Made by a program: the position numbers and the translations under genes | Part shown: positions 11,619-17,420 of the stretch, one piece after another | Numbering within the stretch: the stretch's first letter is position 1 | How the letters are laid out: each line of letters opens with the position of its first letter | Source of the DNA: Alphaproteobacteria bacterium | GTDB taxonomy: Bacteria > Pseudomonadota > Alphaproteobacteria > Rs-D84 | Direction of reading: 5' to 3' | Assembly (NCBI GenBank): GCA_009777955.1 | Contig: WRKW01000001.1 | Coordinates: 162,309 to 226,308, forward strand | Length of the DNA stretch: 64,000 nucleotides | The notes under the pieces: generated by a model | What the model was told of the DNA's origin: nothing | The model's database searches: none | What the model saw: the letters and a program-made list of their open reading frames with translations, nothing else

Positions 11619-13658
11619 TTAGAATTTTATTCTCATTCCAATGTTCAGGGCGTATGATTCATAGGCATTTCCGAATTCCAATGTAAAGTCGCCATAAGCG
11701 TAAGAGCTTTGTGTCATACGAACATTCGTGCCGATGGATATATCAAAGCCGGCTCCGCCGATATCAGAATCCATGTAAACCCCTGCGAAATTCATTTTTG
11801 TATTCCCCAGCCATTCGTTATAGATTCCTGCTTCGATGAATGGCCGCCATACTGAATCGGTTCCTTCGACCAGATAAGTTGCCTGCAGTGCCAACCGGGT
11901 GTCGAAACTGTGCGTATCGTCGAAAGTTATAACATCACCAAAGCTTGTTTTATGTGAAGAGCCAAGCCCCAACGAATATCGGGCTTCGACTTTTGGTTCC
12001 CACATTATCAGCGATATTTCGCGTTTTCCGAATTGTGCGAACGAAGGTGCATAGTGCCACATGGAACGACCGCTTTCGACACTTGTAGATATAAAGTTGC
12101 GCATCGCACGATGTTCTATATCATGGCCGCTGCTGGACACATTATTTAAATTTGTTTCTACCCAAAAATTACGGAACGTGGCATCGACGAACCATCCGGA
12201 TTTGTGCATCCAGGTTGCGTATGTTCCTATGTTGGGGATGGATGCGTCACCGCTTCCGTAAAACTTGTTTGTCTGTTTGATTTTTACACTATCGGAATAC
12301 ATTATTCCGCCCATAATTCCTACATATAGTTCACTATTATGTAATTTTCGCGAAATGTCTATTCCGCTCTCTGTCCCGACCAAACCAATTCTTGTGCTGA
12401 TCGTATCGTTAACGTTTAAGTATTTCCCATAAGAACGGATCCATAGGCCTGCCTGCTTTTCTTTATTTTCGCTGCGCAAATTTCCCAGACGTTTGCGCAA
12501 CTCATTCATTCCGGATTTCACTATGTACAGGTGCATCGCTGGAACATTGGCGATTGTTTTTGCCGTGTTCGTAAGTTGCGCCGTGTTATTTGATGGATCT
12601 GGCGACATGTTCGTTGTCAGGTACCAGTTATCGTCACTACCCTGAACCAAGCCATATTCCAATGCGCCGACATCAATTACTTTACCCGCTAACGAGAATT
12701 TTGAAGTTTTTACAATGGCATCGGTCAGATCTACAACCAGTATTCCATTGGCATCCTTTGGGGTTCGGGTTTCGCTAAAGCCCGTTGGGGTAATAAACAA
12801 AGTTGCGTTACCGGTCGCGCTTCCAGTAAGTACAAGCTTGTCCGATTTATTACCTTTGTCGTCAAAGTATGTATTAAGAAAAATATTCCCACCGTTCGCT
12901 GTCCAGTTTTCAACTGTCAAAGTATTGTATTGGCCGGAAATCGATCGCAGATCGATATTCGCGCCACCTGATATTGAAAGGTTATTTATGGATAATGTGT
13001 CGTAAAAGTGAATTGTTCCGCCAGATATTACATTGCGACCCGCAAAAAAGTTTGTTGTATATACTCTGGTTACGCCGCCGGTTTGTGTGAATGTTCCATT
13101 AAAGTTATTGTTGATGGAACTGGATTGCAAAACAAGTTCCCCATTTCCTGATTTATTTATATAGCTGTTGTTATCTCCGACATTGGAAATTCCGCCATAA
13201 AAAATAACTTGGCCAGAGTTGCCATTTATATTGAGATGACTGTCGCCCGAACCAAACAGGCTGAACAATGCGATGTCGTTCAACCCTGTTGAGTCTGAAT
13301 TTTCTTTGAATATGGTTGTATCATCGTTTGCTGTTTGTATCGTTATTGTGCCAGAGCTTAAATATATCGCGCCACCCCGTTCATCCGTATGGCGATTTTC
13401 GAATTTGTCGCCGCCCGATATACTGAATGTGCCACCATTTATGCAAAAGCGTCCGCCGCTGCCGTTGGTGCAGCTGAATGCAGCATTAAAATTCATGATG
13501 AACAGTATGGAACAAAGCGTTTTTACAAAAAATTTTCCCCGCGCCAAGGCTGGTCTTTTTTGTACCGAATGACGCTTGGTTATGAAACGATAAAAAAAAT
13601 GTGGCATTTTCAGCGTCATAATGCAAAGCATTATATCATAATTACCGGTTTCTATCAA
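11619..13658 (-). CDS. Autotransporter outer membrane protein with Pmp-like (GGAI) passenger repeats. The start is uncertain among the first roughly 20 codons.
   Basis: The N-terminal signal reads KTLCSILFIMNFNAAFS. The passenger is rich in Asn/Gly/Thr/Ser with GGAIY, FxxN and INGNSG motifs. The C-terminal roughly 280-aa beta-domain has alternating hydrophobic residues and a terminal ...GMRIKF. Confidence 0.65.
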   Translation of the reverse strand: MIETGNYDIMLCIMTLKMPHFFYRFITKRHSVQKRPALARGKFFVKTLCSILFIMNFNAAFSCTNGSGGRFCINGGTFSISGGDKFENRHTDERGGAIYLSSGTITIQTANDDTTIFKENSDSTGLNDIALFSLFGSGDSHLNINGNSGQVIFYGGISNVGDNNSYINKSGNGELVLQSSSINNNFNGTFTQTGGVTRVYTTNFFAGRNVISGGTIHFYDTLSINNLSISGGANIDLRSISGQYNTLTVENWTANGGNIFLNTYFDDKGNKSDKLVLTGSATGNATLFITPTGFSETRTPKDANGILVVDLTDAIVKTSKFSLAGKVIDVGALEYGLVQGSDDNWYLTTNMSPDPSNNTAQLTNTAKTIANVPAMHLYIVKSGMNELRKRLGNLRSENKEKQAGLWIRSYGKYLNVNDTISTRIGLVGTESGIDISRKLHNSELYVGIMGGIMYSDSVKIKQTNKFYGSGDASIPNIGTYATWMHKSGWFVDATFRNFWVETNLNNVSSSGHDIEHRAMRNFISTSVESGRSMWHYAPSFAQFGKREISLIMWEPKVEARYSLGLGSSHKTSFGDVITFDDTHSFDTRLALQATYLVEGTDSVWRPFIEAGIYNEWLGNTKMNFAGVYMDSDIGGAGFDISIGTNVRMTQSSYAYGDFTLEFGNAYESYALNIGMRIKF

Positions 13659-14682: not shown

Positions 14683-14712
14683 TAAAAAAGACCTATTGAA
14701 GTCAATAGGTCT
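14683..14712 (-). terminator. Intrinsic terminator immediately downstream of the tRNA-Lys gene.
   Basis: On the minus strand, the hairpin agacctattga-cttc-aataggtct is followed by a T-run, right after the tRNA CCA end at 14718. Confidence 0.55.
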
Positions 14713-14717
14713 GAAAC

Positions 14718-14984
14718 TGGTGGACGCAGTAGGATTCGAACCTACGACCCACTGATTACTTTACCACTTCAATTTTCATTGCCCCTTATGGGTTCGTGGT
14801 CTGGACTATGTCTTCAACCTTTCGGTTGGTCGGTGTATAGTCTCTACACTCGGTTTTTCAACCTAGCTCGGTGTTGCCATTTTACAGGGTTCGCCGAATT
14901 AGCCGACTTTTTCAATCAAGATTTCTCTTGAAAGCTCCTAATCTAGTCAAGAGTCAGTTGCTCTACCAACTGAGCTATGCATCC
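14718..14984 (-). tRNA. tRNA-Lys(CUU) gene interrupted in the anticodon loop by a group I intron. Exon 1 is 14950..14984 and exon 2 is 14718..14758.
   Basis: The minus strand reads GGATGCATAGCTCAGTTGGTAGAGCAACTGACTCT | intron | TAATCAGTGGGTCGTAGGTTCGAATCCTACTGCGTCCACCA. The acceptor stem GGATGCA/TGCGTCC pairs perfectly. The D-arm is GCTCAGTTGGTAGAGC, the anticodon stem is ACTGA/TCAGT, and the spliced loop CUCUUAA gives anticodon CUU. The T-arm is GTAGGTTCGAATCCTAC. Confidence 0.75.
14759..14949 (-). ncRNA. Group I (IC3-like) self-splicing intron within tRNA-Lys, 191 nt.
   Basis: The intron follows a U and ends in G (omega-G). The 5' exon and intron start CUCUUGA pair with the internal guide UCAAGAG. 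The core matches the Azoarcus tRNA-Ile intron almost word for word: AAUUCGGCGAA.CC, AUGGCAAC.CCGAGC, GUGUAGAGACUA.AC and CCGAAAGG. Confidence 0.75.
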
Positions 14985-15088
14985 AGTGCGTCGCATTATA
15001 TCCCAAAAATTGCCGGACGCAAGCGGTTTTTTGTATTGCCAGTTGATACAAAAATCTCTAAGATAAGCCGGAAACAAAAGGGGCATGA

Positions 15089-16408
15089 ATGAAAGTTCAT
15101 TTTGTCGGAATCAACGGATCGGGCGCAAGCGGGGTCGCAATCGCCGCCGCAAAAATGGGTTTCCAGGTAAGTGGATGTGATCATTCTGCGGATACTCCAT
15201 ATTCAGCCCAAATTGCCGGTGCCGGAATTCCGGTAATAATCGGTCACGACGCGGCGCATGTTGATGATGCAGATATAGTAACGGCATCGCCGGCTTTGAC
15301 AACGCAGTCAGAAAACATTCCTGAAATTGCTGCTGCCGCTGCTGCTGGTAAACTTATGAAGTGGCAGGAATTCTTGGGCAAATACATATTGCCGGGTCGA
15401 AAGCTTATTGCTGTATGCGGCACCCATGGTAAAACCACGACCAGTGCTATGGTTGCCCATATCCTTGAATATGCGGGTCTTGATCCTACTGCTTTTATTG
15501 GGGCGATCGTACCTGCTTGGAATTCTTCCAACAGATTTGGTGCATCGGACTGGACGGTGCTGGAAGCCGATGAATACGCGAATAATTTCGAATCATATCG
15601 ACCACAAATTACCATACTTAATAATTTGGAAATGGAGCATCCGGAATATTTTCGTGATTATGAACACTATAAAAAAACATTCCGGGATTTTTTGGCGAAT
15701 GCGACCGGGATGTTGATATATAATGCGGATGATGCCGGGGTTTTGGAAGTCATAGACTCTTTTTCCGGTGAAAAAATTCCATTCAGTATACACGGTATTA
15801 AAATTACGGCCGATGCAAATGGCCAGAGTTTTGACGGATTTGAAATCAAACTATTGGGTGTGCATAATGTAAGCAATGCCATGGCGGCAATTTCCGTCGC
15901 GCGGAAGGTTGGAATAAACGATGATATTATTCGTGACGCGCTTTCTTGTTTTCGTGGTACTGGACACAGGCTGGAAAAGGTTTATGAAAGCACGAAAATT
16001 ACGATTTATGATGATTATGCGCATCATCATACCCAGGCAAAAAAAACGATAGAAGCACTGCGTGCATCATATCCCGATGCGCGGCTTACTGTTGTTTACG
16101 AACCACATCAGATTTCAAGATATACCCAGAATACTGTCGATACATTGGCGGGGCTGTCGGTTGCCGATATGGTTTTTATAATGGAATTTTGGCGTGGTCG
16201 TGAAAGTAACTTATCGCTTCCAGACGTGACTGCTGACATAGAAAGATTTGGTGCGAAAAATATCAGATATATTCCAAACACGGACGAAGTCTTGGCGGTG
16301 GCACTTTCCGATGCGCACAGCACGTCTGGTAAATCTGTAATTCTTGTAATGGGCGCGGGGGCTTCTTGGAAAATAGCAAAGAGACTTAAAGAAGAGTTGG
16401 AGATTTAG
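15089..16408 (+). CDS. mpl: Mur ligase family protein, MurC/Mpl-like. It is probably murein peptide ligase Mpl because it lies outside a dcw cluster.
   Basis: The 439-aa protein has an N-terminal HFVGINGSGASGVAIAA (the MurC/Mpl Rossmann motif), the central ATP-binding P-loop CGTHGKTTTSAM, and a C-terminal Mur ligase domain. Its neighbours are not cell-wall genes. Confidence 0.7.
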   Translation: MKVHFVGINGSGASGVAIAAAKMGFQVSGCDHSADTPYSAQIAGAGIPVIIGHDAAHVDDADIVTASPALTTQSENIPEIAAAAAAGKLMKWQEFLGKYILPGRKLIAVCGTHGKTTTSAMVAHILEYAGLDPTAFIGAIVPAWNSSNRFGASDWTVLEADEYANNFESYRPQITILNNLEMEHPEYFRDYEHYKKTFRDFLANATGMLIYNADDAGVLEVIDSFSGEKIPFSIHGIKITADANGQSFDGFEIKLLGVHNVSNAMAAISVARKVGINDDIIRDALSCFRGTGHRLEKVYESTKITIYDDYAHHHTQAKKTIEALRASYPDARLTVVYEPHQISRYTQNTVDTLAGLSVADMVFIMEFWRGRESNLSLPDVTADIERFGAKNIRYIPNTDEVLAVALSDAHSTSGKSVILVMGAGASWKIAKRLKEELEI

Positions 16409-16418
16409 ATAATATTAT

Positions 16419-17420
16419 TTGTGTAAATATGATATAATCTTTGCCAAGAGAGATTATATTTTGAAAAAATTCCTTTTATTTTTTGTTACAGTTAATGCTT
16501 TGCTATTGTGTCAGGTTTATGCCGATATATTGGCACTGGATATCGCGGTTGCCGAAACGCGGGACAGTTGCAATGGAATTTCTGATGAATTGAAATCATT
16601 ACAGACCATGGCCGGGATAAATACTGCGATTACTGGTATCGGAACAGTTGCCGGTGGTGGTGCTTTGTACGCAGGAATTCAAAAGAAACAATTGGATGAG
16701 AAGGCAAGAGAACTTTGGGAATATATTAAAGATATAGAAGATATGAGTGATGATGCTTTTTTTATGCTTTTAGTAAAATTAGCAAATTATAAAGAAGCAT
16801 CTGAGATTATGGATAAAGAATGGGATGAGGACATACTTAATATGGTAGACACACAATCGAAAAATTTTGGTAATTGGCGGACGGGTTTGATGGCCGGTAA
16901 CACTGCTACAAATATTGCAGGTACTGTGATCGCAAATAAAAACAAAAATGCCGGAAAAGGCATAGTTGTTATGGTAAATTCGTGTTTGGATTCTTTAATA
17001 GGTTTGCGCGCGGCCTGGATGCAAGCGCGATTAGATGGTGCGGATATTGATGATTTGATTCTTGCGCAAAGGATAGTTGATGAATGCGGAAAGTACAACA
17101 TAAGGGATTTGGAAAAAATTCCACGTCGATCCGACATAGCCAAATGGTCTTCGGCGGTGGGTATCGGGACAGGTGCAGCTGGAACCGTAACCAGTGTGGT
17201 TGCGAATACGGAAAATATACGCAATGCAGCACGTGACACACAGGATGGTGTTCATAAAAATGCCTGGGAAAAAGAACAGAATCTGAATACTGCTTCCAAT
17301 ATTCTGGCTGGTGCCAGTACCGTTGCCAGTGGTATTGCAACCGGTTTTAATATTGCAACGATTACTGTGATAAACAAAGCATTGGGTGTCGCGAATAGCT
17401 GTGAATATATGTTGAGATGA
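16419..17420 (+). CDS. Hypothetical secreted protein with Gly/Ala/Thr-rich glycine-zipper-like segments. The start is possibly at an internal TTG near 16461.
   Basis: It has a signal-like segment KKFLLFFVTVNALLLCQVYA and repeated small-residue segments (GINTAITGIGTVAGGGALYAG, AGNTATNIAGTVIAN, AVGIGTGAAGTVTSVVAN, LAGASTVASGIATGFNIATI). Its stop overlaps the start of the downstream protease gene (ATGA). Confidence 0.4.
   Translation: MCKYDIIFAKRDYILKKFLLFFVTVNALLLCQVYADILALDIAVAETRDSCNGISDELKSLQTMAGINTAITGIGTVAGGGALYAGIQKKQLDEKARELWEYIKDIEDMSDDAFFMLLVKLANYKEASEIMDKEWDEDILNMVDTQSKNFGNWRTGLMAGNTATNIAGTVIANKNKNAGKGIVVMVNSCLDSLIGLRAAWMQARLDGADIDDLILAQRIVDECGKYNIRDLEKIPRRSDIAKWSSAVGIGTGAAGTVTSVVANTENIRNAARDTQDGVHKNAWEKEQNLNTASNILAGASTVASGIATGFNIATITVINKALGVANSCEYMLR

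Follow-up and report, generated by a model that had tools for sequence, protein, structure and literature searches.

[quoted passage not shown] The seed alignment of that survey contains introns hosted by tRNA-Lys, namely Mle24.Lys.3Ug, Mpe6.Lys.4Ug (loop CUUU/UAA, site 35/36) and Dba165.Lys.2Ug, and some of its seeds are tRNA introns as small as about 190–200 nt. Introns at site 35/36 have also been described in tRNA-Asn and tRNA-Asp genes of Patescibacteria where they are reported to splice accurately in vitro and to escape standard annotation tools (mSystems 2026, PMC13011429). Among 4,934 complete genomes, that study counts 28 such introns, with 19 in Patescibacteria and 1 in Pseudomonadota. 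In common with the introns of Azoarcus tRNA-Ile(CAU) and cyanobacterial tRNA-Leu(UAA), the element described here is a compact, ORF-less IC3 ribozyme located in an anticodon loop. The insertion sites and host tRNAs differ, however, with the intron lying at 36/37 in Azoarcus tRNA-Ile, at 34/35 in tRNA-Leu, and at 35/36 in our example.

The 64-kb stretch of alphaproteobacterial DNA that we analyzed (hereafter the window) carries a split tRNA-Lys(CUU) gene (Table 1). Its 35-nt 5' exon reads GGATGCATAGCTCAGTTGGTAGAGCAACTGACTCT and its 41-nt 3' exon reads TAATCAGTGGGTCGTAGGTTCGAATCCTACTGCGTCCACCA, and the 191-nt insert between them begins with TGACTAGATTAGGAGC and ends with GAAGTGGTAAAG. From the joined exons, ARAGORN predicts tRNA-Lys(ctt), 76 nt long. 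Its acceptor stem has 7 bp, its 7-nt anticodon loop reads CUCUUAA, the discriminator base is A73 and CCA is encoded. On this structure, the insert falls between U35 and U36. Thus, the insertion lies in the 7-nt anticodon loop, and exon joining restores a canonical tRNA-Lys(CUU). If the junction is moved by one or two bases in either direction, the preceding U or the terminal G is lost. This terminal residue, omega-G, is nucleotide 14759, directly before UAAUCAGU, and is invariant in the alignment of split tRNA-Lys(CUU) genes. The initial annotation had proposed exons of 35 and 41 nt around a 191-nt intron at 14718–14984, a canonical joined tRNA with the loop CUCUUAA, and an intron that follows a U and ends in G; all of these assignments are upheld by the sequence and by ARAGORN, with the U-1/omega-G combination being lost on shifts of 1–2 bases.

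Standard searches do not recover the gene in this form. Default ARAGORN reports two tRNA-Leu genes in the 64-kb window and misses the split tRNA-Lys(CUU). When run in intron mode on the precursor, the program does call a tRNA-Lys(ctt), but with incorrect intron bounds, i(37,179), and we did not take the junction from this prediction. The same locus sequence is present, without any difference, on a 187-kb ENA contig and on a JGI contig from two independent metagenomes, ENA ERZ27257348 and JGI 3300002469, and therefore is not an assembly artefact.

Table 1. Features of the split tRNA-Lys(CUU) locus. Window coordinate equals 14985 minus precursor position.
Feature	Window coordinates	Precursor positions	Strand	Detail	Basis
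TATAAT, -10-like hexamer	14995..15000		minus	10 nt upstream of mature 5' end	read from sequence
Split tRNA-Lys(CUU) gene, whole	14984..14718		minus	35-nt exon, 191-nt intron, 41-nt exon	
5' exon	14984..14950		minus	tRNA positions 1-35; last base U35 (-1 U)	sequence; ARAGORN on joined exons; identical in L133
Group I intron, IC3-like	14949..14759		minus	191 nt, no ORF, omega-G at 14759	RF00028; model R1; covariation
P1 hairpin	14953..14935	C32-A38 with U44-G50	minus	CUCU/UGA (14953..14947) with IGS UUAGGAG (14941..14935); loop CUAGA	Rfam alignment; MFE fold
P10 candidate		A43-A46 (AUUA) with UAAU of 3' exon	minus	4 bp	inspection only
P2 hairpin	14931..14916	54-69	minus	UCAAGA-GAAA-UCUUGA	Rfam alignment; MFE fold; 6/6 pairs covary
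P3	14907..14903 with 14833..14829	78-82 with 152-156	minus	GUCGG with CCGAC	4/5 pairs with double changes, 100% paired; R1 alignment
P4	14897..14892 with 14873..14868	88-93 with 112-117	minus	one C92·A113 mismatch	98.9% paired
P5, minimal	14889..14877	96-108	minus		R1 alignment
P6/P6a	14867..14848	118-137	minus	GGUU-GAAA-AACC	R1 alignment
P7	14844..14838 with 14808..14803	141-147 with 177-182	minus	GAGACUA with UAGUCC; A142 bulged	alignment of homologues
P8 hairpin	14828..14815	157-170	minus	CAACC-GAAA-GGUUG; much shorter than in other family members	
P9 three-way junction	14800..14763	185-222	minus	P9 ACCAC/GUGGU; P9a CCC-AUAA-GGG; P9b CAAU-GAAA-AUUG	fold
Intron end		223-226	minus	AAAG; omega-G at 226	sequence
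3' exon	14758..14718		minus	tRNA positions 36-76, encoded CCA included	sequence; ARAGORN
Intrinsic-terminator-like hairpin with T run	14689..14712		minus	5 nt past CCA	

The insert can be mapped helix by helix onto a group I intron. Our assignment of P1 departs from that of the initial annotation, in which CUCUUGA was paired with an internal UCAAGAG. That pairing fails, since it would put U opposite A at the splice site in place of the U·G wobble. We therefore reject UCAAGAG as the internal guide; it is the 5' strand of P2 and covaries with UCUUGA, while the Rfam alignment, the minimum free energy (MFE) fold and covariation all pair the exon with UUAGGAG. In the resulting P1, the U35·G47 wobble at the 5' splice site is invariant in all 15 distinct homologues. 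P3 spans 14907..14829 and encloses P4, P5, P6/P6a and the 5' strand of P7, with the two P7 strands forming the P3/P7 pseudoknot and the guanosine-binding helix. The precursor has a fold z-score of -4.5 relative to shuffled sequences, and its MFE structure displays P1, P2, P3, P4, P6a, P8 and P9/9a/9b.

By helix mapping and string comparison, as opposed to a formal classifier, the layout is that of an IC3 intron: P2 is present, there is no P5abc extension, P9 carries a GAAA-capped arm, and the core is collinear with those of the Azoarcus and tRNA-Leu introns. Two features set the intron apart from its relatives. First, the P4 mismatch C92·A113 (window 14893 and 14873) is found in the window only, with the other 14 distinct members having G-C (12), U-A (1) or U-G (1, in L133, the closest relative) at this position; the mismatch may be tolerated as an A+·C wobble or may slightly weaken the helix. 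Second, the intron is the shortest among 16 aligned split tRNA-Lys(CUU) genes. On inspection, its P5 and P8 are short hairpins that lack the CCUAAG/UAUGG-type tetraloop receptors of the Azoarcus seed, and tertiary stabilization may thus be weaker. GAAA tetraloops cap four of its hairpins (L2, L6a, L8 and L9b).

The insert is a well-supported group I intron and belongs to a conserved intron family that evolves in a structure-preserving manner. We aligned 16 split tRNA-Lys(CUU) precursors, 15 of them distinct, and scored P1 through P9 together with the tRNA structure. In this alignment, 94.1% of cells are paired, compared to 31–42% when partners are slid by one to three columns. Double changes occur in 36 of 77 pairs, and none of 500 shuffles reaches the observed values. 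Pairs changed on both sides are distributed over P2 (6/6), P3 (4/5), P4 (1/6), P6 and P6a combined (3/7), P8 (3/5), P9a (2/3) and P9b (3/4). All six P7 pairs are invariant, paired in every sequence and identical to the family consensus; because P7 never varies, this helix provides no covariation support.

Covariance models lead to the same assignment. The initial annotation had named RF00028 as the model to scan with and had counted the lack of a hit as refuting; at the curated threshold this outcome does arise formally, but not in substance. A scan of the whole window with Rfam at gathering thresholds does not report the intron, whereas in E-value mode RF00028 aligns over its full length (model positions 1–253) to 14959..14793 on the minus strand, with 43.7 bits and an E-value of 6e-10 over 501 nt. 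The curated gathering score is 50, which leaves the window intron 6 bits short. This sub-gathering score is typical of the class, as clear homologues receive between 37.7 and 70.2 bits (L112, 70.2; L087, 56.1; L133, 51.3; L084, 37.9; L016, 37.7). Furthermore, the Sphingomonas solaris intron (L058) is missed by RF00028 even at E ≤ 1e-4. The low scores of L016 and L084 and the failure to detect L058 indicate that annotation at the gathering threshold systematically under-calls tRNA group I introns. We also built a covariance model (R1) of the core, from P3 to the 3' strand of P7, using 14 tRNA-Lys(CUU) introns of other organisms and leaving out both the window and L133. When applied to both strands of the 64-kb window, R1 yields a single match, at 14909..14801 on the minus strand, with 64.4 bits and an E-value of about 6e-15 by a rough calibration.

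Among published introns, the seed Mpe6.Lys.4Ug provides the nearest match in setting. It shares with the window intron a tRNA-Lys host, site 35/36 after the fourth loop base, U-1, omega-G and the P1-P2-P3...P9/9a/9b layout, as well as the core strings AAUUCGGGGAA, GUAGAG.C.A and AUGGUCCAGACCAC...GAAA. Unlike this seed, whose anticodon is UUU, the window gene has the anticodon CUU; the two introns are about 60% identical in a rough global alignment, and the window intron lacks ~40 nt by comparison, its P5, P6a and P8 being reduced. The intron thus fits the Lys.4Ug setting with the anticodon CUU instead of UUU, in a compact form with reduced P5 and P8. The initial annotation had also quoted three core strings as near-collinear with known IC3 introns. 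These are indeed present and match Azoarcus tRNA-Ile and a tRNA-Leu seed in the published alignment; specifically, the J3/4-P4, P5-J5/4-P4' and J6/7-P7 strings are collinear with Aol6.Ile2.5Ug and Ncf2.Leu.3Ug. As in the Azoarcus and tRNA-Leu IC3 introns, L2 and one L9 loop have the form of GAAA tetraloops. Conversely, the CCUAAG/UAUGG receptors carried by P5 and P8 of Azoarcus are missing from the window intron, and global identity is a rough 59–63%. Rough global identities to 12 hand-transcribed published seeds all fall between 53 and 68%, with no single closest seed. The Patescibacteria tRNA-Asn/Asp introns resemble the window intron in their 35/36 site and in being missed by standard tools, but differ in host tRNAs and phylum.

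The initial annotation had noted that a lysine tRNA host is outside the classic cases. It is true that tRNA-Lys is not among the four classical hosts, but the Williams 2020 seeds include Lys.2Ug, Lys.3Ug and Lys.4Ug, and our searches find at least 20 other loci at which tRNA-Lys(CUU) is split at the same 35/36 site, 7 in named genomes and 13 in metagenome loci without taxonomy. Thus, tRNA-Lys as an intron host is not new, and the intron belongs to a described, widespread and recently catalogued class. The genome scan covered one genome per species with the pattern AGAGRCYR..AYRGTCC..GTAATC and gave at least 120 matches, ~110 of them chance occurrences in coding DNA. Among the matches listed, nine are real split tRNAs, comprising seven tRNA-Lys(CUU) and two tRNA-Lys(UUU) genes. 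Because the pattern is too loose and covers only the matches listed, the resulting species distribution is a sample and not a census. The tRNA-Lys(CUU) genes are from Pyrinomonadaceae (L016, L060, L087), other Acidobacteriota entries (L089, L112), an alphaproteobacterial metagenome-assembled genome (MAG; L093) and a Chloroflexia MAG (L095), and the tRNA-Lys(UUU) genes, split at the same site, are from Sphingomonas solaris (L058) and a Rhodobacterales MAG (L084). A tighter pattern applied to metagenomes produced 27 matches, of which 13 are tRNA-Lys(CUU) genes split at 35/36. The remaining 14, together with one viral match, have no tRNA flanks and were treated as chance or unrelated; nine of them were scanned and gave no RF00028 match at E ≤ 1e-4.

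The window intron and the other tRNA-Lys(CUU) introns at 35/36 (L016, L089, L093, L124–L147) have the tRNA, the junction and an IC3-like core in common. The other introns are 193–232 nt long, as opposed to 191 nt, and have longer P5a, P6a and P8 elements; their named hosts are mostly Acidobacteriota, plus one alphaproteobacterial MAG. The window and L133 group together as a compact sub-lineage: at the P3 positions where these two have U-A and G-C pairs, the remaining introns have G-C and U-G. Two core subtypes occupy this site. One is IC3-like (AAUUCGGGGAA...GUAGAGACUA) and is found in L016, L093 and the window, while the second (UAUGCUGGAA...CAGAGACU), found in L087, L112, L060 and L095, resembles the published Lys.3Ug seed. 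The presence of two subtypes at one site suggests more than one invasion of tRNA-Lys(CUU) at 35/36. The intron of L060, a Pyrinomonadaceae MAG, is 715 nt long and contains a 167-amino-acid PD-(D/E)XK endonuclease ORF (PF11645, PDDEXK_5; E-value 3.4e-18), and the 645-nt intron of L095 has a PD-(D/E)XK (PF11645) ORF that is broken into frames. We take PF11645 to be the family of the I-Ssp6803I homing endonuclease. These endonuclease-bearing introns at the same site suggest how the site was first invaded. A search for an endonuclease ORF inside the 191-nt window intron found none; being without a homing endonuclease, the intron presumably passes on by vertical descent or travels with its tRNA gene. 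Separately, the Chloroflexia contig matches the c-di-GMP-II riboswitch model at L095:7270–7356 (plus strand) with 57.8 bits, above the gathering score; this element is unrelated to the intron.

In the window, the split tRNA gene is flanked by a gene for an HxlR-family regulator and by a divergent murC-like gene. The TATAAT hexamer upstream of the mature 5' end is the putative promoter of the split gene. A promoter scan did not call it, because there is no adequate -35 element; each of the three tRNA-Lys genes on L133 and a further contig, L151, is preceded by the same hexamer at a distance of 10–11 nt. The divergent Mur ligase (15089–16408, plus strand) scores 321 bits against a murC equivalog cutoff of 335 and far below the mpl cutoff, and the identical NCBI product is named simply 'Mur ligase family protein'. 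Named MurC homologues at 53–59% identity are from 'Rickettsiales bacterium' MAGs. Next to this gene are two overlapping plus-strand ORFs of 333 and 322 amino acids (16419–17420 and 17417–18385), which also accompany murC on the ENA and JGI contigs; Pfam and NCBIfam searches with both gave no significant match, with one marginal hit to Trypsin (E-value 9e-4). Two genes away from the split tRNA on the other side, a 679-amino-acid autotransporter with a beta-barrel domain (TIGR01414, E-value 3e-55) is encoded at 11619–13658 on the minus strand.

We consider it very likely that the locus is a stand-alone tRNA-Lys(CUU) unit, comprising the TATAAT box, the gene and a terminator, in whose anticodon an ORF-less, IC3-like, 191-nt ribozyme separates U35 from U36 and is spliced out in two steps. 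The split gene is presumably transcribed, with the precursor self-splicing and the product being used. Self-splicing would probably follow the standard two-step mechanism. C32–U35 and the first three intron bases would pair with the guide UUAGGAG to form P1 with its U35·G wobble, and a free guanosine bound in P7 would attack the U35-U36 bond. Omega-G would then take the same pocket, while UAAU of the 3' exon could pair with AUUA of the guide region as P10. Attack by the 3'-OH of U35 would join the exons as mature tRNA-Lys(CUU) and release a linear intron.

Comparison with L133, a 4.3-kb metagenome contig, bears on whether this gene is still maintained. The exons of L133 are 100% identical to those of the window, and its 195-nt intron is ~87% identical over the aligned stretch (blastn), while the adjoining argS genes are ~68% identical in DNA. 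Conservation of the exons and of the ribozyme fold thus well exceeds that of the adjacent DNA. Differences between the two introns are compensatory and concentrated in the stems of P2, P6a and P9b. From the window to L133, P2 changes from CAAGAG/CUUG to CGGGGG/CCCG (the L133 hairpin being CGGGGG-CAAC-CCCG), P6a from GGUU/AACC to GGAUU/AAUCC, and P9b from CAAU/AUUG to CGGU/AUCG. This pattern of conservation argues against a dead remnant, although a similar picture would result if the cassette had been transferred recently.

L133 also reveals that the lineage can hold two tRNA-Lys(CUU) genes. In L133:1848–2375 (minus strand), argS is followed directly by an intronless copy (2375..2300) and, 180 nt further on, by the split copy (2118..1848); each of these tandem genes has its own TATAAT box. 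In L151, whose MurC is 63% identical, only an intronless tRNA-Lys(CUU) is present between argS and murC (1893–1968). The intronless genes of L133 and L151 are identical at 72 of 76 positions, whereas each matches the exons of the split gene at 66–68 of 76. Since the intronless genes are closer to each other than to the split exons, the split gene is a distinct paralogue. The loci around three other MurC homologues (P0002, P0005 and P0008) were without any tRNA-Lys and hence uninformative for synteny. Relative to the L151 arrangement, murC and the two ORFs beside it appear inverted in the window, between a ybaK-like gene and the split tRNA.

With an intronless paralogue kept in a relative, the split copy might in principle be under weaker selection, and the intron might be a decaying, splicing-incompetent remnant within a tRNA pseudogene, with AAG being decoded by an intronless tRNA-Lys(CUU) elsewhere or by tRNA-Lys(UUU). 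The redundancy seen in L133, where the intronless copy sits 180 nt upstream of the split one, is compatible with such decay, as are the sub-threshold RF00028 score, the C·A mismatch in P4 that is unique to the window, and the minimal P5 and P8. Nonetheless, we regard this reading as highly improbable. Columns that are invariant across the 16 aligned genes are by definition unchanged in the window, and where the window differs from the other 14 sequences, most changes are paired and compensatory or occur in L133 as well. The exons remain 100% conserved between organisms whose argS genes differ by ~32%, the TATAAT box and terminator are intact, and R1 scores the core at 64 bits. A ribozyme with an intact core that needs a protein cofactor or RNA chaperone in vivo, self-splicing being insufficient at physiological Mg2+, is likewise a highly improbable reading, judged from the anatomy: peripheral tetraloop-receptor contacts are reduced, with P5 and P8 short and lacking recognizable 11-nt receptors in an intron that is the smallest of those aligned, but the four GAAA tetraloops are still available for helix-minor-groove contacts, the published seeds include tRNA introns of similar size, and no candidate cofactor gene adjoins the split tRNA. 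The favored interpretation remains a self-splicing intron in a functional gene, and the window/L133 pair appears to show purifying selection maintaining an intron-bearing paralogue, whether alongside an intronless copy or in its place.

Whether an intronless copy persists in this genome affects how much depends on splicing. The initial annotation suggested that, if the split gene were the only tRNA-Lys(CUU) copy, the cell would rely on self-splicing to decode AAG. This is too strong, given that L133 has an intronless copy and that tRNA-Lys(UUU) alone suffices to read AAG in bacteria such as E. coli; a sole split copy would therefore not make AAG unreadable. Immediately after argS (20802..19087, minus strand), the window has the ybaK-like gene, which leaves no room for a tRNA, and a search for a second tRNA-Lys within the 64 kb found none. 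AAG accounts for 26% of lysine codons in seven window genes and for 48% in rpsA. It is nevertheless doubtful that the split gene is the only tRNA-Lys(CUU) of the genome, with the intronless copy having been lost.

The window intron leaves the knowledge of group I introns and of tRNA-Lys unchanged, and extends the 35/36 class of tRNA introns by an alphaproteobacterial member that, at 191 nt, is very compact. The recent survey places most members of this class in Patescibacteria (PMC13011429). Because the split gene is invisible both to default ARAGORN and to Rfam at gathering thresholds, a genome of this kind would be scored as lacking tRNA-Lys(CUU). A point of some interest is whether the genome has lost its intronless paralogue. 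If so, a minimal 191-nt ribozyme without the usual P5/P8 receptors would control the dedicated decoding of AAG, and the organism would be a natural case in which to ask if the level of a single tRNA can be adjusted through ribozyme splicing.
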